From Candidatus Magasanikbacteria bacterium CG_4_10_14_0_2_um_filter_41_10 (GTDB lineage Bacteria; Patescibacteriota; Patescibacteriia; Magasanikbacterales; UBA922), in NCBI GenBank assembly GCA_002792995.1, contig PFPJ01000055.1, positions 293 through 64,292 of the forward strand: a stretch of DNA of 64,000 bases, in the 5' to 3' direction. Shown here in pieces: positions 1 through 46,178 of this stretch. A program made the translations under genes and the position numbers. How positions within the stretch are numbered: the first letter of the stretch is position 1; every line of letters begins with the position of its first letter. A model generated the notes under the pieces. It did not search any database, was not told the DNA's origin, and saw only the letters and a list, made by a program, of their open reading frames with translations.

Positions 1-629
1 AATTCTTTTGCTTTTCCAGATTTTACTGAACTGACAAATTCATTTGTAAATTTTTCAGAGCTGACGTACAGAATACGTGTGGAAGAATTTCTTGCAATCA
101 TTTCATTGCCAATTGCTTGGAGCAAATGAGTTTTTCCAAGTCCTACTCCTCCATAGATAAAGAGCGGGTTGTAGGCTTCTCCAGGCCTATCTGCAACTGC
201 GCGTGCGGCAGCGTGTGCAAGTTCGTTTCCTTTTCCTACTATAAAAGTATCGAAAGAGTATTTTATATTGAGACCAAACTGAGCCCCAAGACTCATCTTT
301 GGATTTGAGTGAATTGGTGTTTCGGGGGTAGACACTGTTGGCACAGCCGAGAGTGTACATTCTTGTTCAGTGATGTTCTTTAGGTTTTCCACTCGGTATT
401 CTATTTTTTTGATTGGTTTCCCTGTAACTTTTTCTATGGTACTGATGATATCTTTGTGATATTTGTTTTCCAACCAACTTTTTGTGAAAGCATTTGGAAC
501 ACAAATAACCACATGACCAGTGTCATATTTTGCGATACCTGTATGTTTGAACCATGTTGTGAAGTTTGGTTTGGATACTTTAAGTTCAAAATCTGCAAGA
601 ACGGTCTGCCAAATTTCGTAATTTGTCAT
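1..629 (-). CDS. dnaA: Chromosomal replication initiator DnaA, N-terminal ~209 aa; the gene continues beyond the window edge
   Basis: Minus-strand translation from the ATG (complement of 627-629) reads [29 protein letters not shown]... and reaches the AAA+ Walker A motif [13 protein letters not shown]. No stop codon occurs before position 1. The ORF is absent from the ORF track because it is open-ended. Confidence 0.85.
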
Positions 630-730
630 AAAAAGTCGCTAAGAGTATGGTTGTTTGTCCAGTTTAGCACAGATACGTATTTGAAAAAATGGCTTAATAT
701 AAACAAAAAGTGCGTAACATGGGGAAAAGG

Positions 731-748
731 TGTGGATAGTGTGGATAT
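731..748. promoter_or_regulatory. Tandem DnaA-box-like 9-mers TGTGGATAG and TGTGGATAT (consensus TGTGGATAA) in the dnaA-rpmH intergenic region; candidate oriC element
   Basis: Read directly from the sequence at 731-748. The location between dnaA and rpmH is the classic origin position. A weaker box, TTATCAATA, lies near 888. Confidence 0.5.
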
Positions 749-820
749 GTACACAAGGAAATGTCTTATGTAATTGTATATATAGATACATAAAAAAAGC
801 TCAAAAGAAGTGTTTCCCTA

Positions 821-849
821 TTGACAGAACAAAGAAAATATCGTATTAT
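821..849 (+). promoter_or_regulatory. Sigma70-like promoter TTGACA-17-TATTAT upstream of rpmH
   Basis: TTGACA at 821-826 and TATTAT at 844-849, with a 17-nt spacer, about 50 nt before the rpmH ATG. Confidence 0.45.
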
Positions 850-901
850 TGTGAACATCTAATACAACATCCGAAAATCTGGATGATCCGTTATCAATAC
901 T

Positions 902-1078
902 ATGCCAAAACGAACATATCAACCAAAAAAACGTAAACGTGCGAAGACCCATGGGTTTCGATCACGTATGGAGGACAAAAATGGGCAAGATGTGCTCAGA
1001 CGCCGACGTGTGAAAGGAAGAAAAAAGCTCACGGTGAGCGATGAACGCACAGGAAAGCGTACAAAAAAGACACGATAA
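902..1078 (+). CDS. rpmH: 50S ribosomal protein L34 with a short basic C-terminal extension
   Basis: [45 protein letters not shown]... matches the L34 signature. It is shorter than the ORF-track cutoff, so it was found by eye. Confidence 0.85.
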
Positions 1079-1132
1079 TCCAACAAAAGACCCCAGAAAT
1101 GGGGTTTTCTGTTATACTATGGGTATCTCGCT

Positions 1133-1510
1133 ATGCTAAAGTCACAACATCGCCTTAGAAAAATGAAAGATATTGAGATTCTCTTCAAAGAGGGGCGTTT
1201 TGTTGGTGGGGATCTGGTTACTCTGAAGCTCTGGTGGGTCGATCCAGACAAGTACCCTCGCCGGAAATATACTAAAAATGACCTCAAAATTGGCTTTGTT
1301 GTGGGGAAAAAGGTAAGTAAGAGTGCGGTAAAACGTAATAAAATCAAACGCCAGATGCGAGAAGTGGTCCGATTGCTTCTAAAAGACGAAAAGTTGAAGG
1401 ATGGCGCCATGGTATCGGTGATTGCAAAGCCCTCTGCGCTCGGAGCCTCCTACGTAGACATTGAAACATCACTGCTAGATGTGTTTCGACGGGGCAAGCT
1501 ACTTGGGTAG
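1133..1510 (+). CDS. rnpA: Ribonuclease P protein component
   Basis: 125 aa, basic, with the RNR-type motif AVKRNKIKRQMRE. Its position directly after rpmH fits the conserved gene order. Confidence 0.85.
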   Translation: MLKSQHRLRKMKDIEILFKEGRFVGGDLVTLKLWWVDPDKYPRRKYTKNDLKIGFVVGKKVSKSAVKRNKIKRQMREVVRLLLKDEKLKDGAMVSVIAKPSALGASYVDIETSLLDVFRRGKLLG

Positions 1511-1528
1511 CGCACAGACAACAAAAAT

Positions 1529-1783
1529 ATGAATATACTTCGTTGGTCAAGAAAACCTGTGCTCTGGCTGATTCGCTTTTATCAGAAATTTCTTTCACCA
1601 GATCACAGTTTTTGGGCAAAAAAAAAGAATCCATACGGCTACTGTCAGTATTATCCGACATGTAGTGTGTATGGATACCAAGCGATAGAAAAATATGGGG
1701 TGATTCGTGGTGGGTTTAAAGCTGTGTGGCGAGTGCTCAGATGTAATCCGTGGAGTACAGGGGGCGTGGATGAAGTAGATTGA
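1529..1783 (+). CDS. yidD: Membrane protein insertion efficiency factor YidD
   Basis: CQYYPTCSVYGYQAI and RCNPWSTGGVD motifs. It sits in the rnpA-yidD position. Confidence 0.85.
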   Translation: MNILRWSRKPVLWLIRFYQKFLSPDHSFWAKKKNPYGYCQYYPTCSVYGYQAIEKYGVIRGGFKAVWRVLRCNPWSTGGVDEVD

Positions 1784-3491: not shown

Positions 3492-4784
3492 TTATTTTTT
3501 CTTCTCTTCCAGTACTTGCTCTTTCAACCACTCCATCACTTTTCTATTTTGCATACTTGTCGCAATTGTGTCACGCACTTCTGGTTTCTTCAGATTATCG
3601 AGGTATTCTTTTTTTGTTTTGTACATCTCTTCGAGCATCTTGATCTCTGCATCGATCTCTTCATCAGAAATGACAATGTTTTGTTCTACGGCTACTTGGC
3701 GAGATACCAGGGCTGCCTTCGCGCGCTTTTCTGCCTGTATTTTGAAATCATTGAAAAGTTCTTCTTCTGTTTTTTTGATATCAGAGAGATATTGTGAGAT
3801 TTCAATATGATTTTTTTCCAGATCTCGTTGCAATTCGTAGAACATCTTTTGTCGCTCAGCATCTATCAGTACTTCTGGAATTGGTGCAAAGGTCGTTTTT
3901 TCAATAATAGCATCCAACATTTCTATTTCTGCTTTTTGTGTCGTTTTTTGTGCTGCTTCATCCAGCATGTTTGTGTGAATGAGCGTTTTGAGTGCGTTGA
4001 TGCTATCTTGTCCGAGAGTTTTTGCAAGATCGTCAGAAAGTTCTGGCAATTGTCGTTCATATACATCTTTGACAGAAATTTTGAAATCAACTTTTTTGCC
4101 TGCAAGATGTTTTTGGTAGTGTGTTTTTGGAAAATCGAGAGAAAATTCTTTTGTATCTCCTTTTTTCAATCCGGCTACTTCTTTGTTGAATCCTGGAATG
4201 TAATGATCTTCTGAAAGATAGACTTGGTAGTCTTTTGATTGTCCGCCTTCGACAGGAACGTTGTCGATAAGCATATCCATATCGAGGACCAGTTTATCTG
4301 TCCCTGTTGCTTCTCCAGCCTTCACAATTTCTGTTGCGTGCATGCCTCGGAGTGCCTCGAGTGTTTCGTCAATCTTTTTTTCGTCGACAGTAGGTTCTTC
4401 TTTTTTTATGGTAATTTTTTTGATATCAGCGAGCTTTACACTTGGCATGAGTGCTACCACTGCCTTGTACTCGATATCGTTTCCTGGTGCGACTTTTTCG
4501 ACAGTAATTTTTGGCATGCCAATCGTTTCCAGTTTTTCTTCACGGATAGCTTCAAAAAACGTTTTTTTGACAATATCCTCCAACGCTTCTTGCATGATAG
4601 CCATTTCACCGAGTTCTTTTTTGACAATATCAAAAGGGGCTTTGCCTTTTCGGAAGCCTTTGATACTTGCTCGTTGTGAAAGACGGACCGCTGCTTTTTG
4701 GAGTGGTTCGCTATATGTGTTTGGTGTTACCGTGATTGTGAGTTCTACTTGTGAGTCTTTGAGGTCTTTTTTGGTATATGACAT
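3492..4784 (-). CDS. tig: Trigger factor
   Basis: 430 aa, with the trigger-factor N-terminal ribosome-binding region GFRKGKAP and overall architecture. Confidence 0.9.
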   Translation of the reverse strand: MSYTKKDLKDSQVELTITVTPNTYSEPLQKAAVRLSQRASIKGFRKGKAPFDIVKKELGEMAIMQEALEDIVKKTFFEAIREEKLETIGMPKITVEKVAPGNDIEYKAVVALMPSVKLADIKKITIKKEEPTVDEKKIDETLEALRGMHATEIVKAGEATGTDKLVLDMDMLIDNVPVEGGQSKDYQVYLSEDHYIPGFNKEVAGLKKGDTKEFSLDFPKTHYQKHLAGKKVDFKISVKDVYERQLPELSDDLAKTLGQDSINALKTLIHTNMLDEAAQKTTQKAEIEMLDAIIEKTTFAPIPEVLIDAERQKMFYELQRDLEKNHIEISQYLSDIKKTEEELFNDFKIQAEKRAKAALVSRQVAVEQNIVISDEEIDAEIKMLEEMYKTKKEYLDNLKKPEVRDTIATSMQNRKVMEWLKEQVLEEKKK

Positions 4785-10846: not shown

Positions 10847-10996
10847 CTCTCCACAAGAGAACATGTCCTCCGCCAAGCCCTGTGCTTGACTTCGAACGGA
10901 CAACTATATATAATATGTGAAGAGTGGTAAATAGCACCACGTGGTGTAGTTTTACACCATAGACGTATATATTTGCTAAAATAAGCAAAAAATGTT

Positions 10997-11746
10997 ATGC
11001 ACATAGATATTTTAGAAGAACTTGGACTGTCACAAAACGAAGCAAAAATTTATGAATCTCTGATTGAAATTGGTGAAAGTACGATTAGTGAATTATCAAA
11101 TAGAAGTAAGATTCATCGCCGTAATATCTACGATTCGATGAGTCGTCTTATTGAAAAAGGACTGGTATTTCAGGTCATTGGGCGTGGAGATAATCTGTAT
11201 AAGCCTGTAGACCCACACAAGCTCATGGAACTCGTTGACGAAAAGCGCACTCGTCTTGAAAAAATCATGCCAGCGCTTATTACCAGCTATGAGCAAAAAC
11301 CTCATCTTGAGGCAGCGTATATCTATAAAGGTATCGAGGGTTTTAAGAATTACCTTCGTGATATGCTGAGTACAAATGAAGATGCTTATTTTATTGGGGC
11401 AAAAGGCGCTTGGTTTGATCCTCGTTTGAAGACGTTTATTGAAGGATTTCTTACTGAAGCAAAGAAACGTGGCATCAAATATCACACGCTATTTGATTAC
11501 GAAGTTCGTGAAGGTGCAGTGGAAGTGCCCATGGCAGTAAAAAAGCCATTTAAGTACCTCCCAAAAAAGTACTCAACACCGAGTATGGTAGATATTTTTG
11601 GGGATCATGTTGTGTCATTTACTGGGGCGGGACTCATGAAGATATCTGATGATATTACGATTTTTGTAAATATTAGTAGACCATTGGCAACAAGTTACAA
11701 AACGTGGTTTCAGTTTATGTTTGACATGTGCCCTGAGATTGAGTAA
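10997..11746 (+). CDS. TrmB family transcriptional regulator
   Basis: N-terminal winged HTH LGLSQNEAKIYESLIEIGESTISELSNRSKIHRRNIYDSMSRLIEKGLV followed by a TrmB-type C-terminal domain. Confidence 0.65.
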   Translation: MHIDILEELGLSQNEAKIYESLIEIGESTISELSNRSKIHRRNIYDSMSRLIEKGLVFQVIGRGDNLYKPVDPHKLMELVDEKRTRLEKIMPALITSYEQKPHLEAAYIYKGIEGFKNYLRDMLSTNEDAYFIGAKGAWFDPRLKTFIEGFLTEAKKRGIKYHTLFDYEVREGAVEVPMAVKKPFKYLPKKYSTPSMVDIFGDHVVSFTGAGLMKISDDITIFVNISRPLATSYKTWFQFMFDMCPEIE

Positions 11747-11773
11747 AGTGCCGGTGTTTCATATGAAACAAAT

Positions 11774-11847
11774 GGTCCTGTAGTTCAATGGATAGAACAA
11801 GACACTCCTAACGTCTAAATCCAGGTTCGATTCTTGGCGGGGCCACA
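11774..11847 (+). tRNA. tRNA-Arg (anticodon CCT)
   Basis: Cloverleaf GGTCCTG / GTTC-AATGGATA-GAAC / AGACA-CTCCTAA-CGTCT / T-arm CCAGG-TTCGATT-CTTGG / acceptor CGGGGCC. The anticodon loop is CT-CCT-AA. Confidence 0.85.
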
Positions 11848-11894
11848 GTAGAAGTACACTTTTGTTGGAGAAAGTACACAATAATCTATACAAA

Positions 11895-11923
11895 TACACT
11901 GTTTAGGACAGTGTATTTTGTTT
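11895..11923 (+). terminator. Rho-independent terminator after tRNA-Arg
   Basis: TACACTG-TTTAGG-CAGTGTA followed by TTTTGTTT. Confidence 0.5.
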
Positions 11924-12347
11924 CACGTAGAACAAACGAGTGTTTCATATGAAACAATTGTAACAAGAAAAGAAAAGTTTTTAAAAAATAAATGTTGTGG
12001 CAAATTTTACTACATGCATGCATGTTTCACGTAGAACATTTTTGTAATTTTATGATAGGGGATATTGATAGATTGAAATATAAAATTTTTTATAAACCCT
12101 AAAGTAAACAACAGATACATAAAATATTGTACGACACATAAAAAGAGCTATAATAAAGCAAGAAAACAACATTTTACAAAATAAAGTGAATAATAAATGT
12201 AAATTTTCTACCATTTGTCCTGTAAGAAAAATGAATGCTACCTAGGTGTCTTTACAAAAAGGCATAAAACAAGTAGGATATCGGTGCCCATGTTGTACAT
12301 GCGGAAGATGTTTCGTGGGCCTTATTTGATTATATTATTATGTTTTT

Positions 12348-13427
12348 ATGCTTGCTATCGGTATCGTAGGGCTTCCCAATGTTGGAAAATCAACGCTTTT
12401 CAACGCATTGACCAAAAGTAAACAAGCAGATGCGCAAAATTATCCGTTTTGTACCATTGAGCCAAATATTGGTATTGTTGAAGTACCTGATGATCGTATT
12501 TCTCAACTGACGTCTACGTCTTCTTCACTCAAAGCCGTCCCTACTGCCATTGAATTTGTAGATATCGCCGGACTTGTGAAAGGTGCTTCAGAGGGTGAGG
12601 GTCTCGGAAACAAATTTCTTTCGCATATTCGTGATGTCGATGCCATTGTACACGTTGTTCGTGCGTTTCAAGATAGCAATGTGGTGCATGTTCATAACAA
12701 CGTCGATCCAAAAGATGACGCTGATGTGATCAACCTAGAACTTGTGCTCGCAGATATGCAGGCCGTCTCTTCGAGACATGCAAAAGTGACAAAGGAAGCA
12801 AAAGGGGTAAAGGCAAAGGAAAAAGCTGTCGAAATGGACGTACTTCAAAAGTTACTTGACCATTTTGAACAAGGGAAACCAGCTCGCACGCTTGATTTTA
12901 CTGAAGAGGAGATGGTCATCATGAAAGAATTGCATCTTATTACAATGAAACCAATGATGTACGTTATCAATATCGATGACAGCCAACATATCGATGGAAA
13001 TGCAAACATTATTGTCGAAGAAGGCGCTACGCATGTATATGTGTCTGCACGAACTGAGGCCGAAATTGCAGAATTGCCTACAGAGGAAGCACGTGAGTTT
13101 ATGAAAGAACTCTGTATGGATCGATCTGGACTGGATACGATTATTACAGCGGGCTATCAAATTCTTGATCTGGTCACGTATTTTACATCTGGCGTGCAGG
13201 AAACGCGCGCGTGGACTATTCACCGAGGGACACCAGCGCAACTCGCTGCCGGTGTTATTCACACCGACTTTATCAAAAAATTTATTAAAGCCGATATCGC
13301 CAACTGGCAAGATTTTGTGAATGCAAAAGGATGGAATGGTGTGAAAGAACAAGGCCATATGCAACTTGTTGGCAAAGAATATATTGTTCAAGATGGAGAT
13401 GTATGTTATTTCCATATTGGAGCATAA
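12348..13427 (+). CDS. ychF: Ribosome-binding ATPase YchF (Ola1)
   Basis: G1 motif [18 protein letters not shown], a TGS domain, and a conserved C-terminus. Confidence 0.9.
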
Positions 13428-14767: not shown

Positions 14768-15901
14768 TTATTTTTTTACCCAACGCCATATTTCTCTTGC
14801 TACAAATTGTTGTTCTCTGGCGTAGACGAGTGGCATCTCTTTTTCTTGGTAGGGAAGCATCTCAAAACCGAGTTTTTTAATATTGTTTTGACATTCAACA
14901 CGAACCCAGTCATCTTTGTATCGGAACTGTGGCACAACGAATATCACACGTCCACCAGGTTTGAGTATTTGTGCAAAGACGCGAAATGCATCGATATACA
15001 AGGCTTGAAGTTCTTGCACTTGTTTTTCAAGAAATGTCCGTTGTTCTCGTCCTGTTCTCGGTACTCCCATGTATGGTTCCGTTGCGATGATGTCAATAGA
15101 TTCTTTTTCAATATGTTCTGTGAGAACACGAACATCACTTTGGAAAATCTGTATATCAGTGACAGGTGATTCAAGATTTGTTTGCAACCATGCTACATTT
15201 TTTTCACTGTCACTGGTCGCTTTTTCGGAAATGTCACTTCCAATGATATGTGGTATTGCAAGTGACAATGCTTCTCCAAGAAGAGTGCCAGATCCACAAA
15301 ACGGATCGAGCAGTGTATCATTCTTTTCTGGCATGGCGAGATTGATCATCATGCGTGATAATTTTGGGGGGAGCATACCACTTTTTCCATCAACGCTGGG
15401 TCTTCCATAATCGCGTTCGCTCATGTCTTCGATAGGTTGAATTGCGCGAGTAACATAGACAACATTATCGATGATGGTGAGATGGGTTCCTCTCTCTACC
15501 AAACCATTATGCAAAATGGTTGCAGTGTTTTTTGTTTCTACATACCTCACAGATCTGCCAATTGTTTTGAGTTTTTTCTTTACTGCGATGGCGAGGCGTG
15601 ATGCCTGTGTACCCCCACTGACAGAAAAATGAAGTTTGGTTGTAGAAGGAAGTGATGAAAGATATGAAAAAAGAGTTTCTTCCGCGTTTCCTTTTGGATC
15701 AAGTTTTTCTCCAATCAATCGTGTCCCTCCGAGGATAATCATATCTGCTTCTGGATCGAGCGGTGTATCCGTAGAAACCAAAAAATATTCACCTACCAAG
15801 CGAGTATACGTAGGAAGAATCCGTTTTTGGGACAATACAGAAAAGATTTCTTCTTGTGAGAGGTCACGTTGGTGGCCGAGTTGGAATGCGTATGTATGCA
15901 T
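14768..15901 (-). CDS. Class I SAM-dependent methyltransferase, RlmL/Trm11-like (probable RNA N2-guanine methyltransferase); last gene of the pilus operon
   Basis: Motif I LLDPFCGSGTLLGEA and motif IV-like IIATEPYMG. A methyltransferase core is preceded by an N-terminal domain of about 150 aa. Confidence 0.55.
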   Translation of the reverse strand: MHTYAFQLGHQRDLSQEEIFSVLSQKRILPTYTRLVGEYFLVSTDTPLDPEADMIILGGTRLIGEKLDPKGNAEETLFSYLSSLPSTTKLHFSVSGGTQASRLAIAVKKKLKTIGRSVRYVETKNTATILHNGLVERGTHLTIIDNVVYVTRAIQPIEDMSERDYGRPSVDGKSGMLPPKLSRMMINLAMPEKNDTLLDPFCGSGTLLGEALSLAIPHIIGSDISEKATSDSEKNVAWLQTNLESPVTDIQIFQSDVRVLTEHIEKESIDIIATEPYMGVPRTGREQRTFLEKQVQELQALYIDAFRVFAQILKPGGRVIFVVPQFRYKDDWVRVECQNNIKKLGFEMLPYQEKEMPLVYAREQQFVAREIWRWVKK

Positions 15902-15921
15902 AGTGGGCTATTCTGTCACTC

Positions 15922-16350
15922 CTAGGGTGTTTGTGTCAAGAGGGTACTACTTGTGGTTGGTGCTATACCAAAGAGAGGAAAAGGGGTAGATGTTGGTATA
16001 TCAGTATTTTTTTTGCTCCACGCGTCACGTACTGTTTCGAGTGTACCAAAATCAATAACATCTGTCCGTTTTGTTTCTTGGATAAAAAAGAGATTTTCAG
16101 TTGCGGCGATGGTGTCAAACACTGTTGCATAGAGACGCCAGAGACCAAATCCTAATAATGATACAACACTTATGCCGACGATCCACGATGAAAGGCGTAA
16201 TATACGGAAATGCGTAAATCTATTTGTATAGACTGCCTGCGAGTAGGCTTTACGTTGTTTTTCTGCTTCGCGCGTATTCATTTGTGTATTTTTTGTTGGT
16301 GGATTTTGTTTTGGCTCTGGTTGAGTTGTTGTCTTTTTTTTGTTTGCCAT
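15922..16350 (-). CDS. Hypothetical membrane protein inside the pilus operon
   Basis: Start chosen at MANKKK (16350). Basic N-terminus, one TM segment, and a Thr/Pro-rich C-terminus. Confidence 0.4.
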   Translation of the reverse strand: MANKKKTTTQPEPKQNPPTKNTQMNTREAEKQRKAYSQAVYTNRFTHFRILRLSSWIVGISVVSLLGFGLWRLYATVFDTIAATENLFFIQETKRTDVIDFGTLETVRDAWSKKNTDIPTSTPFPLFGIAPTTSSTLLTQTP

Positions 16351-16360
16351 AAAAATAACT

Positions 16361-16912
16361 TTATTCTGGTGTGCTTCTCGTGTAGATACGAGCATCAAAT
16401 CGGAGTGTTGCTTGGCCAGCATCCGTTGCTTTTTGAATTTTTATGCCATCGATGAGTACGTAATATGATTGTGCTTCCAGTGTCTGTATGTAAGAAAAAA
16501 GATCTTCAAATGAACCGTTCAGAACAAAAGAAAATGTGTAGTAGGGGAGTCCTACTGTCGGGTCAGGGATATTGGAACGTGTTGCCCCAAGTGTTTGACG
16601 AAGGTTGTGATTGGTTGCCAGGGCTTCTAGTTTTTCGATGATTGTGAGTTCATCCCCATATGGCATAGCAATGTCTTTGTAGGATTCTACTTCCTGACTT
16701 ATGCTATCGAGTTCTCGGAGTGTTCGACGCATGGCCTGTGTACTGTTGTATTCTTGTTCGAGTTCTTGTTGAATTCCTTTTATGTCATCACTAACCATGA
16801 ACATTCTTTTGAGTGTCGGATAAATAATAAATACACCAAGAAGAAGAGAACCTAAAAAAAGTGTACTTGATATAATATAAAATTGTTTTTTGAGACTAAG
16901 TCGGTGCAACAT
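16361..16912 (-). CDS. pilO: PilO-like type IV pilus assembly protein
   Basis: N-terminal TM, coiled coil, and a C-terminal alpha/beta domain. The gene sits in the pilO position downstream of pilM and pilN. Confidence 0.5.
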   Translation of the reverse strand: MLHRLSLKKQFYIISSTLFLGSLLLGVFIIYPTLKRMFMVSDDIKGIQQELEQEYNSTQAMRRTLRELDSISQEVESYKDIAMPYGDELTIIEKLEALATNHNLRQTLGATRSNIPDPTVGLPYYTFSFVLNGSFEDLFSYIQTLEAQSYYVLIDGIKIQKATDAGQATLRFDARIYTRSTPE

Positions 16913-16915
16913 ATA

Positions 16916-17446
16916 TTAGAAAGAGAATGGGATGGAAAGTGAAAAATCTATTTTATTCTGTTTGGTAAGATCGCTGAGTGGAATGGTAACAGTTTCAATT
17001 TGTGGAAGGGATTCGAGCGTATCTTGCAGTTTGAGAAATGCCTCTCTCGACGGAGATGATCCAACAAGTTCAAGCATGTGATCTGACGTACGGAAAGAAA
17101 ATTGGGTGATGGTTGTATCTTCGGGGATAGTATTTGCTAATAAAAGAATATATGGTGACCATGACATGTAATTTTTTTGAATCGCAGTTGCTTGTTTTGT
17201 AATCACATTTATTTTTTGAACACGAACATTTATTTTTCCTGCTGATGTATGCGTCCGAAGACTTTGGAGAGCAATCTCTGCAAATTGTGACTGTAAAAAA
17301 ACTTGGGACATAATTGCAAAAATGGCAAAACAAGAAAGAATTATAAAAATAACAGCAAGCGTATTTTTAATAAAGCCCATCGTCATGATACGTTTGGCGT
17401 ACTGTTGCTTCTTTTTTGACATCAGGTTGAGTCGAATGGGATACAT
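16916..17446 (-). CDS. pilN: PilN-like fimbrial assembly protein
   Basis: Small bitopic protein immediately after pilM, with typical PilN size and topology. Confidence 0.5.
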   Translation of the reverse strand: MYPIRLNLMSKKKQQYAKRIMTMGFIKNTLAVIFIILSCFAIFAIMSQVFLQSQFAEIALQSLRTHTSAGKINVRVQKINVITKQATAIQKNYMSWSPYILLLANTIPEDTTITQFSFRTSDHMLELVGSSPSREAFLKLQDTLESLPQIETVTIPLSDLTKQNKIDFSLSIPFSF

Positions 17447-17454
17447 AGGAATAG

Positions 17455-18552
17455 TTATATCATGTCTTGTGCCTGAAATGGGTTTTCAGCTGCCCGAAGA
17501 GCAAGACCAATAGCTGTGGCGAAACCAAGAGAGGCTGCTTCATTGGGGAGACTTCCTGGATGAAGTCCAAGATTTTTCCACACTTTCCCTGGAGCACACG
17601 TAATGCCAAGACGCTCAGTAAGAAGTTCTGGAAGATGCGGGGTATTGGTAGCGCCACCGGACATAGTGACGTGTGTCACTGTATTGGTATGTGGGAAATG
17701 GCTATAATAAAATTGAAAAGATTGTTCAATCGTATCTATAAATGTATCAAGACTGTCCTTGATAACATTCAAAGCTTTTCCATATTTCTTTGTGTATTTT
17801 ACACCATACATACGTTTGATTTCTTCTGCTTTTTCTTGAGTTTCTTTGAGGCTTTGCATGATAGCGGTAGTAAGAAGTTCTCCTGAAAAAGGTAATGTTT
17901 TGCTAAATTGGATAGCCTCATAATCATAGACAATGAGCGCACTTTGGGTAGCCCCAACATCGAGAATCGCACGAGCTTCACCTGTGTACAGTTTGTTGGC
18001 GGTAATAAGTGATCTTGCAATGGCAAGTGCTTCTATCTCGAGAGACAAGATTCCAAGTCCAAGACTCTCAATAAGGTATGTGTACATATCTACAATGTAC
18101 TTCGGAGCGGCACCGATAAGAATCCGTGTCATGCCTTCTTCAAAATCTGGAAGAATTTGCCAATCAAGATAATAACTTTCTTCATCAAAAGGGATGTGTT
18201 GTTTGGCGATCATGAAGATGTCATCATCTATGACATCTTTGGCTTCTTTTGGAAGGTGAATAACTTTGATAAAACTGTGAATTTCTGGCAGTGTTGCAAC
18301 CACCCATTTGCCATCAACAGGTTTAGTCCCTTTTTTTCCTTCGAGCAAATGTTGAATATATTTCCGGACCTTTTCTGGTTCTTGTATCTCACCATTGACA
18401 ATAAGTCCTGGCGGAAGTGCTGTTTGTCTGACCGTATGCAATCGAAAAGAAGGAGTTTTTTTGTGTCCTGTTTTATTTTCAAGTTGCACAAGCTTAATCG
18501 ACAAATCGCCAATATCAAGACCAAATGCATTTGGATAGGGGTGAAATAACAT
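17455..18552 (-). CDS. pilM: Type IV pilus assembly protein PilM (actin-like ATPase fold)
   Basis: Start chosen at MLFHPY (18552). Motifs GLDIGDLSIKLVQL and ILDVGATQSALIVYD are consistent with PilM/FtsA-like folds. Confidence 0.8.
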   Translation of the reverse strand: MLFHPYPNAFGLDIGDLSIKLVQLENKTGHKKTPSFRLHTVRQTALPPGLIVNGEIQEPEKVRKYIQHLLEGKKGTKPVDGKWVVATLPEIHSFIKVIHLPKEAKDVIDDDIFMIAKQHIPFDEESYYLDWQILPDFEEGMTRILIGAAPKYIVDMYTYLIESLGLGILSLEIEALAIARSLITANKLYTGEARAILDVGATQSALIVYDYEAIQFSKTLPFSGELLTTAIMQSLKETQEKAEEIKRMYGVKYTKKYGKALNVIKDSLDTFIDTIEQSFQFYYSHFPHTNTVTHVTMSGGATNTPHLPELLTERLGITCAPGKVWKNLGLHPGSLPNEAASLGFATAIGLALRAAENPFQAQDMI

Positions 18553-18553
18553 A

Positions 18554-19678
18554 TTAGAAATTTTGTACCAAGGAATACATCGGCATAATAACTGCGACTG
18601 CGACTCCTCCGACAACTAATCCAAGGGTAACAATCAATACCGGCTCGATAATCGTTGCAAAGTTTTTCATTGTTTTATCAACATCATCATTATAAAATGT
18701 AGCGAGCTCAGTGAGAAGAGCATCAATTTCCCCAGTCCTTTCACCTACCATGATCATTTCTGTTACGAGAGGGCTATAGAGTTTTGGATAGTTGCGAAGA
18801 GATTCTGAAAGAGGAATTCCTTTTTCAAGCTCTTGCGAACTTTTCATGAGAGATACGCGATAGTTTATATTACTGCACGTTTCCGCGGTAATAGTGACTG
18901 CCTCAACAATTGGGATAGCACTTTTCATGAGAGATGAAAGCGTGAGAGAAAAACGGGCAAGATTTATTTTTTTGATAACTGTCCCTGCGATAGGGAGGTA
19001 CAAATTTATTGTATGTATATACGTACGAAATTTTAAAGATTTTTTTAGGAGCGTAATGAATGAAAACAGAAAAAGTATGATGAATATGGAAAGGAATATT
19101 AAATTTATTGGTTTACTCATGAAATTGGTTACTGCCATGAGAATTCTTGTTGGAAGTGGTAATTCGCTATCAAACTCATTAAAAATAGTGAGCAATTTTG
19201 GAAGAATAACCGTGGTCATGAGGACGCCAATACCAAGCATCGCTACGACGATGACCGCAGGATAAATCATCGCTCCGCGGATGGTGGAGGTCAGGTCATG
19301 CGTCTTTTTCATTTGTACTGCAATTTGTGTAAGGGCTTCTTCAAGTTTTCCACTGACTTCACCGGCTTCAATCATTTTGACATAAATAGGAGGAAAAACT
19401 TTTGGGTGTTTACGGAGGACATCGCTAAATTGTTTTCCGCCACTCACTTCTTTTGTTACATCGGCAATGACCATCTTGAGTGCTTTGTTCCCAGTTTCTT
19501 TTGCCAAAATTTCGAGTGCCTCGACGAGTGAGAGTCCGGCATGGATCATGATTTTGAGATGATCCACGAAAAACATTTTTTCGGTAAACGAAATTCTCGT
19601 AAGGTGTTTTGCCACCCAGTCGTTTAATTTTTTTTCGAATGGTGAAAGTTCTTTTACTTTTTTCTTTTTTTCAAACAT
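18554..19678 (-). CDS. pilC: Type IV pilus platform protein PilC (GspF family)
   Basis: Start chosen at MFEKKK (19678). Two GspF repeats and three TM segments. Confidence 0.85.
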   Translation of the reverse strand: MFEKKKKVKELSPFEKKLNDWVAKHLTRISFTEKMFFVDHLKIMIHAGLSLVEALEILAKETGNKALKMVIADVTKEVSGGKQFSDVLRKHPKVFPPIYVKMIEAGEVSGKLEEALTQIAVQMKKTHDLTSTIRGAMIYPAVIVVAMLGIGVLMTTVILPKLLTIFNEFDSELPLPTRILMAVTNFMSKPINLIFLSIFIILFLFSFITLLKKSLKFRTYIHTINLYLPIAGTVIKKINLARFSLTLSSLMKSAIPIVEAVTITAETCSNINYRVSLMKSSQELEKGIPLSESLRNYPKLYSPLVTEMIMVGERTGEIDALLTELATFYNDDVDKTMKNFATIIEPVLIVTLGLVVGGVAVAVIMPMYSLVQNF

Positions 19679-19746
19679 AAAACAGGCGTAGTAAACGCCT
19701 GTAGTATAACACACTTTATATATTGTTGTTACTATATTTTTGGGTG

Positions 19747-21480
19747 CTACTCTCTTGTGACGCGCAATACTTCTTCGATACTCGTCATTCCTTGTTTTGC
19801 TTTAATCAGACCATCTTCAAGCATGGTAATCATCCCATTTTTGATTGCATATTCTTTGATTTGTGTTGCCGTCCCTCGATTGTTGATCAATTCAGCAACC
19901 CCTGCATCTACTTCAAGGATTTCATAAATACCAATACGTCCTTTATATCCACTTTGATCACACTTTCGACAGCCTGGAGAGCGGAAAAATTCCATAGCAG
20001 ATAGTTTTTTCTCGGCAGTTTTGAGTTTGATATCGTGTTCAGTAAAGAGTTTGATGGCCGTACGGACATCAACCAATTTTTGCAATTCTTTTACTGCCGG
20101 TGCGTCGAGTTTGAAAGGGGTACGACAGTGATCACAGAGTCGTCGTACCAAACGCTGGGCAATGATGATATTTGCGGTAAAAGCGATCAAAAATGGAGGA
20201 ATGCCCATATCCATAAGACGTGGCAATGTGGTTGGGGCATCATTTGTATGGAGTGTCGAAAGCACGAGATGCCCTGTCATAGCTGCATGCATAGCAATCT
20301 CCGCAGTTTCTTGATCACGAATTTCTCCTACCATGATAATGTCTGGATCTTGGCGCAAAAATGCTCTGAGACCAGATGCAAAACTAAAACCAACACGTGG
20401 ATTGATCTGACTTTGATTGATGCCGCCGACATGGTATTCAATAGGATCTTCAATTGTTGAAATATTTACATTTGGTTGGTTCAAAATACCAAGCACAGAA
20501 TACAACGTTGTTGTTTTTCCACTTCCTGTTGGCCCTGTTACGAGTACCATACCGTGTGGTCTTTGGATAGCAGCATCCACCAATTTTCGGGGTCCTGGGA
20601 GAAAACCAAGTTGATCGAGTGTTAATGGTTTTTGTCCTTCGTGAAGAACACGCATAACTATTTTTTCTCCATCATACACAGGGATAATAGATACACGAAA
20701 TGCCAGTTCTTCTTCGTTCACTTCAATTTTGAATCGTCCATCCTGTGGAAGCATGTGTTCATCTATTTTGAGGTTGGCAAGAATTTTGATACGTGCGGTG
20801 ATGCCATTGCGTACTTGCGTAGGGAGGTGCATCACTGAATGAAGCATTCCGTCTACACGATATCTGACAGAAACATCTTTTTCTGTTGGTTCTATGTGAA
20901 TATCACTCGCATCTTGAAAAATAGCGTGTTCTAGAATACTTTTGACAATATTGATAATAGGAAGTTCCTCCGCTGCTTTTTTGAGTTCTTCTGGTTTATA
21001 GTTTTTTGTTTGCTTTGATGTCACCCCTGCGAGCTTCAATTCTTCTTCGAGACCCGCACGATAGAAACGAAGTGCACGTTTGATACTGCTTGGTGTGGCA
21101 AGAGAAACTGCTGGGATAAGGCCTGTTTTTCTCCTCATGAATTCAATCGTTTGGATATCAAGAGGATCAATCATTGCCAGGTAAATCGTATCTTTTGTTT
21201 TTTCAAATGCAATGATGTAGTGCGTTTCAGCGAGTGGCTGAGGGACAATAAGGAGTGTGTCTCTGGGAATTTCTTTTTCAGTCAAATCTACCAGTGGCAC
21301 GTCCATTTCCTTGCTCAAATATGCATAGAGTTCTTTTTCTTTTACAACCCCATCCTCAATGAGAGATAGTTCTAGTCTTTTTTCTGATGTTTCTGCGTTT
21401 GCTTTGAGTTCCTCAATTTTGGCAGGTTTCATCTTTTTTACCTCAGTCAGGTATGTGGTGATAATATCTTTTGGAAACAT
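19747..21480 (-). CDS. pilB: Type IV pilus assembly ATPase PilB (GspE family)
   Basis: Walker A VLVTGPTGSGKTTTLY, Asp and His boxes, tetracysteine CDHC...CRKC, and an N-terminal GspE-N domain. Confidence 0.9.
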   Translation of the reverse strand: MFPKDIITTYLTEVKKMKPAKIEELKANAETSEKRLELSLIEDGVVKEKELYAYLSKEMDVPLVDLTEKEIPRDTLLIVPQPLAETHYIIAFEKTKDTIYLAMIDPLDIQTIEFMRRKTGLIPAVSLATPSSIKRALRFYRAGLEEELKLAGVTSKQTKNYKPEELKKAAEELPIINIVKSILEHAIFQDASDIHIEPTEKDVSVRYRVDGMLHSVMHLPTQVRNGITARIKILANLKIDEHMLPQDGRFKIEVNEEELAFRVSIIPVYDGEKIVMRVLHEGQKPLTLDQLGFLPGPRKLVDAAIQRPHGMVLVTGPTGSGKTTTLYSVLGILNQPNVNISTIEDPIEYHVGGINQSQINPRVGFSFASGLRAFLRQDPDIIMVGEIRDQETAEIAMHAAMTGHLVLSTLHTNDAPTTLPRLMDMGIPPFLIAFTANIIIAQRLVRRLCDHCRTPFKLDAPAVKELQKLVDVRTAIKLFTEHDIKLKTAEKKLSAMEFFRSPGCRKCDQSGYKGRIGIYEILEVDAGVAELINNRGTATQIKEYAIKNGMITMLEDGLIKAKQGMTSIEEVLRVTRE

Positions 21481-43420: not shown

Positions 43421-43528
43421 AAAAAAGCACGTTGGTATATAACGTGCTTTTTTCAAAGTTTCTTCTCAGCAATCTTGATGTTCAAGATCGTAGTTGAAGG
43501 GTCGACGCATGAGCAGGTTGCGTCGACC
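43421..43528 (-). repeat. 3' boundary module A of the GC-rich gene 43574-44362: GC hairpin, CCTTCAACT, conserved 26-mer, AT-hairpin terminator (minus-strand sense)
   Basis: Forward AAGCACGTT-GGTATAT-AACGTGCTT, then TTTTTTCAAAGTTTCTTCTCAGCAAT (43448-43473), AGTTGAAGG (43492-43500), and GGTCGACGCA-TGAGCAGGT-TGCGTCGACC (43500-43528). Confidence 0.5.
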
Positions 43529-43573
43529 AGGTTGTTGGTTGTGTGGGGATGACCTCCTGTCAGGTCGGGATGG

Positions 43574-44362
43574 CTACGGCGCGCAGAGCGCCGAGGAGTA
43601 CTCGTGCTCGCAGACCTCCATGTCCGCGTTGCACGTGTCGATGGTGCACGGGTCACCGTCGTTGCAGTTCGAGAGATCGGGGCGGCAGGTGGCGCCCAGC
43701 CCGCCCGGGTCCTCGACGCACCCTTCGACCGTGCAGCCTGCCTCGCAGTCCTGCGTGATGGGGACTTCGCCGCAGACCACCTCCGTGCAGGTGGGGCTGA
43801 AGGCGACGAAGTCACCAGCTTCGTCGCAGTACGGCTTCGAGGTCGCCGTGCAGTCCGTGTAGGTCTCGCACTGCGGTGACTCGGGGCAGACAGCGTCGGC
43901 CGCGAGGAACATACACACGCCGTAGGTGCTGTTGCCCGGCAGAGGGACGCACCTGGGCGAGAAGCTCACGAGAGCTTCGCCCACCTGTTGCCCGATGCTG
44001 TCGTTCGAGCAGTCCATGTCGGACGCGCAGAGGCCCGTGGTGGGCAGGAAGGTGAACCTCGGCGACGCCAGATCGAGGGCGCAGCCCCCGGTCTCGCCGT
44101 TGCAGGTGAAGCCGTCGCCGCAGTCGACCACTGCGTACTCGCAGTGGCCGGACCTCGACCACCAGTTCCACCAACTGAGGTCGGCGCTGCAGCGCGACTG
44201 GTGGATGCACTTCGACCCCGTCGTGGGGTCAATGGTGCACTGACCGTCGTTCCGGCAGGTCGTCGACGACTGCTGCCAGACCAGGATTCCACCACCCCCG
44301 GCCAGCGCAGGGCTCGGGATGAAGAAGATGAGGGCCAACAAGAAGGCCAAACGGATCAGCAT
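43574..44362 (-). CDS. GC-rich (~65% GC) cysteine-rich secreted protein (262 aa, about 34 Cys)
   Basis: AGGAGAG RBS and signal peptide MLIRLAFLLALIFFIPSPALA. The mature region is full of Cys/Asp/Gly repeats (DPCTIDTCN, CGDGFTCNGETGGC) and has a WWNWW patch. Confidence 0.6.
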   Translation of the reverse strand: MLIRLAFLLALIFFIPSPALAGGGGILVWQQSSTTCRNDGQCTIDPTTGSKCIHQSRCSADLSWWNWWSRSGHCEYAVVDCGDGFTCNGETGGCALDLASPRFTFLPTTGLCASDMDCSNDSIGQQVGEALVSFSPRCVPLPGNSTYGVCMFLAADAVCPESPQCETYTDCTATSKPYCDEAGDFVAFSPTCTEVVCGEVPITQDCEAGCTVEGCVEDPGGLGATCRPDLSNCNDGDPCTIDTCNADMEVCEHEYSSALCAP

Positions 44363-44474
44363 GGGTCACTCTCCTGACGCATGCAACTTCTCTACCTAGA
44401 ACATCCAGGTATAAGAAGTTGCTCGGGAACGTGTAAAAAAACTGGACGAATCCAGCTCTTTACTTCTGCCCAAG

Positions 44475-44503
44475 GTTTAGCACAACATAGCATTTTTGTC
44501 AAT
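44475..44503 (-). promoter_or_regulatory. Promoter-like element for gene 43574-44362; near-duplicate of the element at 45975-46004
   Basis: Minus strand TTGACAAAAATGCTATGTTGTGCTAAACC, 24/29 identical to the copy upstream of gene 44661-45833. Confidence 0.4.
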
Positions 44504-44510
44504 TTGTTGT

Positions 44511-44626
44511 TGTGAAAAAAACACCTTGCTAGGTGTTTTTTCAAAGTTTCTTCTCAGCAATTTCAAACAATCTTGAAATAACAGTTGAAGGGGCGACGCA
44601 GCAGTGAAGTTCACTGCTGCGTCGCC
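44511..44626 (-). repeat. 3' boundary module B of the GC-rich gene 44661-45833; same architecture as module A
   Basis: AACACCT-TGCTAGG-AGGTGTT hairpin, identical 26-mer TTTTTTCAAAGTTTCTTCTCAGCAAT (44536-44561), AGTTGAAGGGG (44583-44593), and GGCGACGCAGCAG-TGAAGTTCA-CTGCTGCGTCGCC (44592-44626). Confidence 0.5.
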
Positions 44627-44660
44627 TGGGTTGAGCCCCCACGTAGGGGCGGTTGAGAGG

Positions 44661-45833
44661 TCAGGGTTGGGACTGACACGACGCGATGTCCCACTGACAG
44701 CTCGCGTCGATCGTGCCCTGGACGCTCACGTCGCCGTAGATCGAGACGTGCCCCGCGGTGCCGTTTGGACCGGCGATGAAGACGTCGCCGTTTACGGTCA
44801 GGGCGTTTTCGTCCTGGTTGACGTTTGCCGCGGAGAAGCCGCCGTAGGTGGCGAACTTGGCGCCCTCGACCTTGGCGAACCACTTGTTGTCGTCTGGGCT
44901 CTGGACGAAGCTGATGAATTGCGACGCGTGGTCGAGCCAGGTCAGCTTAACCTGGTTGAGGTAGCCAGGCATCGAGACGATGCCGTTGACATGCATGCCC
45001 ATGTTGCCGATGAGAGCTTGGGCCGTCTCAGCCGTGCTACCCCCGAACCGTGAATCGTGCTTCACCAGTAGGTCATGGTTCACGGTGACGTCCTGAGCGA
45101 AATCGGCGCTGTTTGCTGTGATGCTTCCGCCGACGGTGAGATCGCCAACCAGGTAGCTTCCCTCCGAAGCTTGGAGGTAGCTAGTCACCAGCTGGTCGCT
45201 TGCATACACGTTCGACGTGTGAATACCGTCGTCCGTCAGGACGGAGAACCAGGAGCTCCCGTCGAAGTTGTAACTGAGATGAAGCTTCGGACTGACCTGC
45301 TGGATCCATTCGACGTCGGTCGCGTTGAGGTAGTACTCGTGGACGTCGCCGTTCTTGAGGCCGAGCATCCCCACATGCGCGACGCCCTGCACCCAGGAGT
45401 CGATGAACGACCCCATGTCTGCGGAGACGTACTGTGCCATGACGCGGCCCGCCTGGAGCTGGTTCGGGCCCATGTCGACGTCCTTGTTGATGTACAAGTG
45501 ATCGTCGAACGGGTTGGGCGTATCAGCACCGACGATCGTGAACGTCTCCGTCAGCAGTGCGAGCTTCTGCTTCAGCTCTGCCACCTTCGTGTTGAGCTCG
45601 CTGTTCATGGTCGTGTAGAACAGCCGCTCACCCTCCATGGCCTGGACACGGCCCTCGAGCTGGTCGAGGCGCTGAGTGAACTGGTCGATCTCTGTCGAAT
45701 CGTCGACCACGGGCTGCTGGTCGCCGGCGCAGCTCAGGTTCAGGCTGAGCAGCACGAGGAAGGGGAGGACGATGAGGAAGCGGACGAGGAAGGAACGCTC
45801 ACGAGGAGCGTCGGGGTCATTGAGGCGGTTCAT
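44661..45833 (-). CDS. GC-rich lipoprotein with an N-terminal coiled coil and a beta-rich C-terminal domain (about 390 aa)
   Basis: Start chosen at MNRLN (45833), which has a GAGAGGG RBS; the alternative MFRSRGN start is at 45854. Lipobox LSLNLSCAG, then a coiled coil (IDQFTQRLDQLEGRVQAMEG...KVAELKQKLALL), then a Gly/Ser/Val-rich domain with a C-terminal CQWDIASC. About 62% GC. Confidence 0.6.
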   Translation of the reverse strand: MNRLNDPDAPRERSFLVRFLIVLPFLVLLSLNLSCAGDQQPVVDDSTEIDQFTQRLDQLEGRVQAMEGERLFYTTMNSELNTKVAELKQKLALLTETFTIVGADTPNPFDDHLYINKDVDMGPNQLQAGRVMAQYVSADMGSFIDSWVQGVAHVGMLGLKNGDVHEYYLNATDVEWIQQVSPKLHLSYNFDGSSWFSVLTDDGIHTSNVYASDQLVTSYLQASEGSYLVGDLTVGGSITANSADFAQDVTVNHDLLVKHDSRFGGSTAETAQALIGNMGMHVNGIVSMPGYLNQVKLTWLDHASQFISFVQSPDDNKWFAKVEGAKFATYGGFSAANVNQDENALTVNGDVFIAGPNGTAGHVSIYGDVSVQGTIDASCQWDIASCQSQP

Positions 45834-45974
45834 GTTCCCTCTCGATCTAAACATGCATTCATCACCCCCAGACCATCTGGAAGTAATTTCAACATGTTTT
45901 GTGGCTTGAACTTGGAAAAGAGCAGAAAGCAGGACGAATGTCCTACCCTCAATTTCTCAGCCAAAAAGACGTCC

Positions 45975-46004
45975 GTATATAGCACAAATGAGCCTTTTTG
46001 TCAA
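45975..46004 (-). promoter_or_regulatory. Extended -10 promoter for gene 44661-45833
   Basis: Minus strand TTGACA-AAAAGGCTCATTTGTGC-TATATA (TG at -14). Confidence 0.45.
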
Positions 46005-46178
46005 GCTACCCTGTTCAAAAATAGCCTGCAGGGCGCAACCCGCCGGATAGGCGGGTGAAGCCCTGGGGATAACCCTAGGGATAACCTATGGAGCTGCCCC
46101 TAGTGAAGAAAATAGAATTTTGCTAAAATAAGCAAAAAAACGTCAGTTCTTGACAAATAGTTATACACGTGATTCAAC

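Follow-up and report, generated by a model that had tools for sequence, protein, structure and literature searches.

Four 16-bp palindromes lie together within 285 bp of the 64-kb stretch of DNA analysed here (the window), which comes from Candidatus Magasanikbacteria bacterium CG_4_10_14_0_2_um_filter_41_10 (PFPJ01000055.1); the public contig examined around it measures ~68 kb. They frame a tRNA-Arg gene between the gene of a TrmB-family regulator and ychF, and they raise the question of which protein such sites would serve. A first reading of the letters without database searches (the sequence-only reading) had seen in them a dimeric transcription-factor site, with the adjacent regulator as candidate binder. 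We propose that the four palindromes are very probably a parS cluster, that is, centromere-like and origin-proximal landing pads for ParB. The observations behind this assignment are sequence identity to parS, non-random clustering, conservation in relatives and a position near the origin, and it is favoured because motif, conservation pattern and position are each specific to parS. The general form of the earlier proposal, a site for a dimeric helix-turn-helix protein, stands; its identity and function have to be revised, since the match to the parS consensus points to parS and not to a regulon-defining operator.

Four parS-like palindromes around a tRNA-Arg gene

The published parS consensus is TGTTNCACGTGAAACA (PMC7022226), also written TGTTTCAC-GTGAAACA (PMC7022226, PMC7383237). 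The window was scanned with the canonical form TGTTTCACGTGAAACA at thresholds of ≤2 and ≤3 mismatches, the chance expectation being taken from 100 dinucleotide shuffles. At ≤2 mismatches, four matches were obtained in the 64 kb, all of them within 285 bp, compared to 0.05 expected. They are the palindromes listed in the sequence-only reading, TGTTTCATATGAAACA twice and TGTTTCACGTAGAACA twice, at the same coordinates (Table 1), and each is identical to TGTTTCACGTGAAACA at 14 of 16 positions. Allowing ≤3 mismatches gave no additional match anywhere in the window, and leaving the two central bases free gave no further copy at ≤2 mismatches in the same 64 kb. The cluster is the sole one in the ~68-kb contig; such confinement of the motif to one locus is expected behaviour for parS and is not a refutation.

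The arrangement around the tRNA gene agreed with the earlier description, which had placed one copy beside the tRNA 5' end and a pair, 6 bp apart, after the tRNA terminator. The first site, parS-1, starts 9 nt past the stop codon of the regulator gene and ends 3 nt before tRNA-Arg. The pair formed by parS-2 and parS-3 follows the hairpin and T-run at 11892-11918, with parS-2 overlapping the T-run and a gap of 6 bp (AACGAG) between the two sites.

The Noc-binding site (NBS, TATTTCCCGGGAAATA), bound by a ParB paralogue, is likewise a 16-bp palindrome of equal architecture, and two bases per half-site (G and A) set parS apart from it (PMC7383237). The parS-type G and A are retained in all eight half-sites of the window, and NBS, which has A and C at positions 2 and 7, was ruled out. 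LexA, CRP/FNR and Rex-type sites were weighed for their TGT-N10-ACA geometry and were dropped after the exact parS consensus had been recognised and confirmed in the literature.

Table 1. Coordinates of the candidate parS sites and of neighbouring features in the window
Feature	Sequence	Position	Strand	Remarks
parS-1 (candidate)	TGTTTCATATGAAACA	11755-11770	.	perfect palindrome; 2 mismatches to the consensus (central CG>TA)
parS-2 (candidate)	TGTTTCACGTAGAACA	11919-11934	.	2 mismatches, both within the right half-site
parS-3 (candidate)	TGTTTCATATGAAACA	11941-11956	.	22 bp from parS-2, centre to centre
parS-4 (candidate)	TGTTTCACGTAGAACA	12023-12038	.	82 bp from parS-3
tRNA-Arg(CCT)		11774-11846	+	ARAGORN; Rfam RF00005, 56.7 bits; framed by the parS sites
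Terminator-like hairpin, then T-run	AAATACACTGT / ACAGTGTATTT	11892-11918	+	repeat search, fold, alignment
Promoter-like	TTGACA-17-TAAAGT	11721-11749	+	inside the 3' end of the regulator gene; identical in L001 and L002
Promoter-like	TTGTAC-16-TATAAT	12127-12154	+	AT-rich spacer; kept in L001 and L002
ychF (GTPase gene)		12348-13427	+	downstream of the spacer
TrmB-family (TrmBL2-like) regulator		10997-11746	+	Pfam PF01978 winged helix-turn-helix, E 5.6e-17
Regulator promoter	TTGACT-17-TATAAT	10886-10914	+	within the 10886-10960 regulatory stretch
Conserved ~40-bp element	contains CACCACGTGGTG and GGTG-N8-CACC	10922-10960	+	
Origin-region marker block, dnaA to yidD		3-1783	.	
dnaA, 5' part		starts 629, runs off the window	-	origin marker
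Two tandem DnaA boxes	TGTGGATAGTGTGGATAT	731-748		origin marker
rpmH		902-1078		origin marker
rnpA		1133-1510		origin marker
yidD		1529-1783		origin marker

Conservation in relatives and distance from the origin

The comparison covered 80 fetched loci encoding homologues of the TrmB-like regulator (L001-L080) and three relatives inspected with 10-kb flanks (L090-L092). All loci keeping the regulator/tRNA-Arg arrangement carry two to four parS-like palindromes in the downstream spacer, so that the motif, whose conservation the sequence-only reading had left to be checked, is indeed conserved. The spacer of L005/L090 holds two perfect TGTTTCACGTGAAACA sites (16/16). In L002, from another strain of this species, the sites are TGTTTCATATGAAACA, TGTTTCACGTAGAACA, AGTTTCATGTGAAACA and AGTTTCACGTGAAACT, and L012 has TGTTTCACATGAAACA plus two variants, one of them abutting tRNA-Arg. 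The sites of L001, L006, L007 and L010 tend to TGTTCC...GGAACA, and the TAGAACA half-site variant of parS-2 was found again in L006 and L010. In two more distant lineages, L027 and L066, perfect TGTTCCAyrTGGAACA palindromes occur in pairs upstream of the regulator homologue; this Pseudomonas/Myxococcus type of parS is seen also in L006, L007 and L010.

Pooling of 26 parS-like sites from 10 genomes (52 half-sites) gave the counts T47 G52 T52 T52 Y(27C/25T) C45 A48 Y(25C/27T), corresponding to a tGTTYCAY pattern. Positions G2, T3, T4, C6 and A7 are kept, and variation is confined to the 'N' of the published consensus (position 5) and to the central step, the central base being free (C/T) beyond what the published consensus allows. 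The motif is kept across genomes whose regulators are just 40-78% identical and whose flanks cannot be aligned. When the window is aligned with L001 and L002, parS-1 and parS-2 hold their position while the surrounding DNA gains or loses inserts; parS-3 is present only in the window strain, the corresponding position of L002 being degenerate.

This pattern bears on the idea that the palindromes are operators of another dimeric transcription factor whose sites happen to look like parS, such as a repressor acting locally on the tRNA or ychF. Such a factor would fit the promoter-like and terminator-like positions of the sites, the unconserved central CG in this lineage and the lack of a visible ParB gene in the loci searched. 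However, the conserved positions coincide exactly with those of parS, relatives carry perfect parS copies, the cluster is origin-proximal and no second copy of the palindrome precedes any other gene within the 64 kb; we consider this explanation very improbable.

The left end of the window contains dnaA, tandem DnaA boxes, rpmH, rnpA and yidD. The distance of the cluster from this origin region is therefore ~11 kb (counted from the dnaA/rpmH spacer; 10-11 kb from the markers overall), which agrees with the expectation for parS. To the left of the window, the public contig continues with the rest of dnaA, dnaN and an open reading frame (ORF) of 279 aa, and then ends (~3-4 kb). The GC skew is positive over the whole window, consistent with an origin at or beyond its left end. 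The rpsF-ssb genes are found at 21.6-22.7 kb, and the gene neighbourhood recalls that of the origin in B. subtilis, with rnpA-rpmH, ychF/yyaF and rpsF-ssb.

DnaA boxes were searched with the consensus TTATCCACA. Compared to a background of 0.38 boxes per kb, clusters of boxes adjoin the orthologous parS sites in L092, L075, L066, L027 and L002, with three boxes within 52 bp directly ahead of the parS site in L092 and three tandem boxes by the parS sites in L075. They add separate weight to an origin-proximal location of the sites. Together with the AT-rich composition of the spacer (GC 0.24-0.29), these clusters are in favour of the view that the spacer itself is, or recently was, a replication origin or DnaA-box cluster, with the palindromes as origin-associated elements. 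In the window, however, the spacer (11747-12347) contains zero DnaA boxes at ≤1 mismatch and two at ≤2 mismatches compared to ~1.8 expected, the GC skew keeps its sign at 12 kb, and the tandem DnaA boxes adjoin dnaA instead, at 731-748. An origin within the spacer is highly improbable on these grounds and, even if it were true, the palindromes would remain parS. As a separate observation, L002 carries at 4600-4660, in AT-rich DNA after parS and near the contig end, a perfect DnaA box TGTGGATAA with two weaker flanking ones; this segment is not in the window strain, which runs on into ychF.

The candidate cluster was compared with characterised systems, in which chromosomes carry 2-22 parS copies, mostly origin-proximal (PMC7022226). 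The 10 sites of the B. subtilis parS/Spo0J system (8 in the origin domain; TGTTNCACGTGAAACA) share with those of the window the 16-bp palindrome, the tolerance of imperfect copies and the proximity of the origin. They are, however, spread over hundreds of kb and often intragenic, whereas the window has four sites in 285 bp of one intergenic spacer, a centre relaxed to YR and no parB gene nearby. The parS1-4 sites of P. aeruginosa (TGTTCCACGtGGAACa; also M. xanthus and P. putida) form a likewise tight four-site group, there next to oriC, and lead to one large ParB domain, seen as a 50-kb peak in chromatin immunoprecipitation (ChIP), with silencing of neighbouring genes (PMC7022226). The candidate sites of the window are more tightly spaced than these, and the TGTTCC...GGAACA half-site of P. 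aeruginosa is shared by the relatives L027, L066 and L006, whereas the window genome uses TGTTTC. S. pneumoniae has likewise a small genome with four origin-proximal sites (AGTTTCACGTGAAACT) and no ParA (PMC7022226), and its variant AGTTTCACGTGAAACT is present exactly in the second strain, L002.

The TrmB-like regulator and its own element

The assignment of the gene next to the cluster to the TrmB family, already made in the sequence-only reading, was corroborated by Pfam (Table 1). In its AlphaFold model (pLDDT 90), the protein has a winged helix, then a long (coiled) helix and, at the C terminus, a PLD-like domain. Among PDB structures it is closest to TrmBL2, a chromatin protein of archaea (5bpd, E 1e-13), with TrmB next, and the sugar-binding domain of TrmB is missing. 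Conservation of the regulator is very high, at 50-84% identity between Magasanik-, Peregrini-, Kerfeld-, Campbell- and other groups of the candidate phyla radiation (CPR), and the protein may serve CPR bacteria as a global or nucleoid-associated regulator.

We found also that the regulator gene has a conserved element of its own. The consensus GAGTGGYMAATANCACCAYRTGGTGNTANTTNACACCAC (GAGTGG…CACCACGTGGTG…CACCAC) is located at the +1 of a near-consensus TTGACA-17-TATAAT promoter in ~50 of the 80 loci, from many CPR phyla; it starts ~7 nt past the -10 box and occurs a single time in the window. Its core is the separate palindrome CACCACGTGGTG that had been pointed out at 10935-10946. The DPANN archaeal homologues L071-L079 keep the second half of the element, ATGGTAGT-N4-5-CACCACCA, and L018 and L026 have an upstream element with palindromes of the GGTGAT-N4-ATCACC type. 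The 10922-10960 element is probably the autoregulatory operator of the TrmB-like regulator; it could also form a structured 5' leader in which GUGG/CCAC blocks pair in alternative ways.

According to the earlier proposal, the palindromes would be operators of this regulator, through which it would control tRNA-Arg, ychF or a wider regulon. In the window and in seven Magasanikbacteria-type loci, the sites do lie next to the regulator gene, parS-like pairs are present ≤1 kb upstream of its homologue in L027, L066 and L075, and the start point of a promoter-like sequence would fall on parS-1. On the other side, the motif is canonical parS, with perfect copies in L005, and a parS-like site was found near only ~13 of the 80 regulator-homologue loci, ~67 having none. 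Among these, the six homologues L003, L004, L008, L009, L011 and L013, which encode regulators 70-82% identical and have no adjacent tRNA-Arg, showed no parS-like site within 3 kb. The GGTG/CACC element of the regulator, with its wide conservation and single copy in the window, has no similarity to TGTTTCA-N2-TGAAACA. The TrmB-like protein is therefore unsupported as binder of the palindromes, because its own element differs and close homologues without the tRNA-Arg neighbour lack parS, and we judge it very unlikely that the palindromes are its operators. The neighbouring protein does share the winged helix-turn-helix family and a TrmBL2-like fold with TrmB/TrmBL2, but TGTTTCA-N2-TGAAACA is unlike the operators of TrmB/TrmBL1, which follow the Thermococcales glycolytic motif TATCAC-N5-GTGATA. 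The supposed TrmB regulon is removed in this way as a false lead, and the real candidate operator of a regulator conserved in CPR and DPANN is indicated instead.

In at least four CPR lineages of differing arrangement (the Magasanikbacteria type, L027, L066 and L075), parS pairs or clusters are found no more than ~1 kb away from the TrmBL2-like gene. The parS pairs, often with DnaA-box clusters, were seen at 2104-2207 in L027, 477-713 in L066, 1588-2031 in L075 and 11043-11277 in L092. Either the TrmBL2-like gene lies habitually by the origin in CPR genomes, or gene and sites are functionally linked. A functional partnership of the protein with the CPR centromere or origin, or even a role as reader of the sites in lineages without ParB, appears very unlikely. 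This recurrent nearness to parS/DnaA-box clusters and the CPR-wide TrmBL2-like regulator with its +1 element are the more interesting by-products of the analysis.

Search for ParB, proposed role and the surrounding spacer

Several points speak against the assignment of the cluster to parS. None of the four copies of the window matches the consensus perfectly, and two of them have TA in place of the usually well-conserved central CG. No dnaA was found within 10 kb of the cluster in L090-L092, direct origin proximity being seen in this genome only. The literature searched for parS/ParB in CPR bacteria yielded no paper describing parS there; a parS cluster is a well-known kind of feature, and the CPR lineage of this genome seems to be without prior description of one. 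Finally, the 64-kb window, the adjoining 4 kb on its left and 654 kb of related loci yielded no gene for ParB, ParA or SMC.

A cognate ParB would combine the ParBc domain PF02195 with the helix-turn-helix domain PF17762. Regular expressions for GERRxRA, ENxQRxxL and the Walker A motif had no match in the window or the related loci, and a ParB profile hidden Markov model (HMM) had none among all ORFs of ≥60 aa in the 654 kb. Pfam scans of all major ORFs of the window showed no ParB, ParA or SMC, and the 10-kb flanks of the three relatives contained no ParB. In tblastn, B. subtilis Spo0J and Soj queries retrieved nothing; the central segment of the Spo0J query matched a database sequence at 100% identity. 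A profile built from four ParB sequences was run against a database of 5.8 billion proteins, and its best 120 matches were all ordinary non-CPR ParBs. The 279-aa ORF beside dnaN was rejected as a hidden ParB, with no Pfam hit, no ParB motifs in its translation and no match to the ParB HMM. In favour of the assignment, for another, cultivated Patescibacterium, Southlakia epibionticum, the supplement of PMC10633639 lists adjacent ParA/ParB genes, SEML1_0183/0184, as growth-defect/essential in transposon sequencing.

If the cluster is parS, a ParB dimer would recognise each 16-bp palindrome through its helix-turn-helix domains, and ParB on parS would bind cytidine triphosphate and close into a clamp. 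Such clamps would slide outward onto the flanking DNA and, because of this sliding, four close loading sites would build one large ParB-DNA complex ~11 kb from dnaA/oriC. The complex would be moved by ParA and/or load SMC condensin, leading to the separation of newly replicated origin regions, and the four loading sites in 285 bp should act as one strong centromere, like P. aeruginosa parS1-4. The analogy rests on characterised systems (PMC7022226, PMC8494293, PMC7053999), and by this analogy ParB would bind at the cluster, spread from it and possibly affect transcription of the tRNA or of ychF. The sites parS-2 to parS-4 are located between the terminator-like hairpin and the conserved TTGTAC-16-TATAAT upstream of ychF; more speculatively, ParB occupancy could dampen tRNA and ychF expression, as is reported for genes near P. 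aeruginosa parS (PMC7022226).

A cluster of this kind is as expected for a bacterium with ParABS, with tight four-site packing round a tRNA gene and a relaxed central dinucleotide as mild surprises. It would provide a fixed point for locating centromere and origin region in a CPR bacterium that is ultra-small and uncultivated, and it could be used in orienting assemblies of metagenome-assembled genomes, in predicting oriC, and in ParB ChIP or plasmid-stabilisation work in Patescibacteria.

The AT-rich spacer before ychF had been noted as unusually long, and it measures 501 bp from tRNA-Arg to ychF with a GC of 0.24-0.29 compared to ~0.41 for the window. Its length is explained by its probable content, namely the centromere, the tRNA terminator and the likely ychF promoter. 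The stem of the hairpin at 11892-11918 shows compensatory changes in L001 and L002, and the promoter-like element at 12127-12154 is likely that of ychF. The element at 11721-11749 would put the start of tRNA transcription inside parS-1, but its conservation may merely reflect coding constraint. A non-coding RNA in the spacer was looked for and rejected, Rfam giving the tRNA alone at E≤1.

The tRNA-Arg region is rearranged between strains. In L002 (3776-4150), a 71-nt insert with a duplication of 11-14 nt sits at the 5' end of the tRNA. The 3' end of the tRNA is there in three copies and its anticodon arm in two, of which one is apparently interrupted; a double-hairpin element also occurs twice, and a hairpin element of L001 is related to it. 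These rearrangements look like integration/excision scars at a tRNA, or like a small mobile repeat. In L001 (4400-4930), the sequence switches abruptly to GC-rich DNA after the parS spacer, with an S-adenosylmethionine riboswitch on the minus strand (RF00162, 51.9 bits). No ychF follows the L001 spacer, and the spacer is therefore a rearrangement hot spot.

The tRNA 3'-end copies, the 71-nt insert and the repeated double-hairpin of L002 are what would suggest a mobile origin of the palindromes, either as remnants or att-like ends of an element targeting tRNA-Arg or as copies of a miniature inverted-repeat transposable element. The palindromes, however, have no sequence in common with the tRNA or the inserts, parS-1 and parS-2 stay fixed while inserts come and go, and the motif is conserved across genomes despite unalignable flanks and regulators only 40-78% identical. 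A mobile origin of the sites is almost certainly wrong.

Some other features were observed in the relatives and in the window. In L027, AATGTCTAGGC-N5-TGTGGACAA occurs three times between tRNA-Arg and tRNA-Ala and once more beside a parS site (1380-1520 and 2125-2150), and a separate triple repeat, GTTTCCAGAAAAAGTGACTTTTTTTG, is located at 1730-1910; these repeats look iteron-like or origin-like. The window contains at 14768-21480 a type IV pilus block (PilM, PilN-like, T2SS-F and T2SS-E ATPase) together with an N6/N4-type methyltransferase-like gene, and beyond it RecA, FtsK, RuvC and rpoBC; the pilus block and these genes are unrelated to the parS cluster. At 43500-46100, a GC-rich island (0.58 compared to 0.41) with overlapping long ORFs on both strands and no Pfam hit may be foreign DNA or a non-coding feature.

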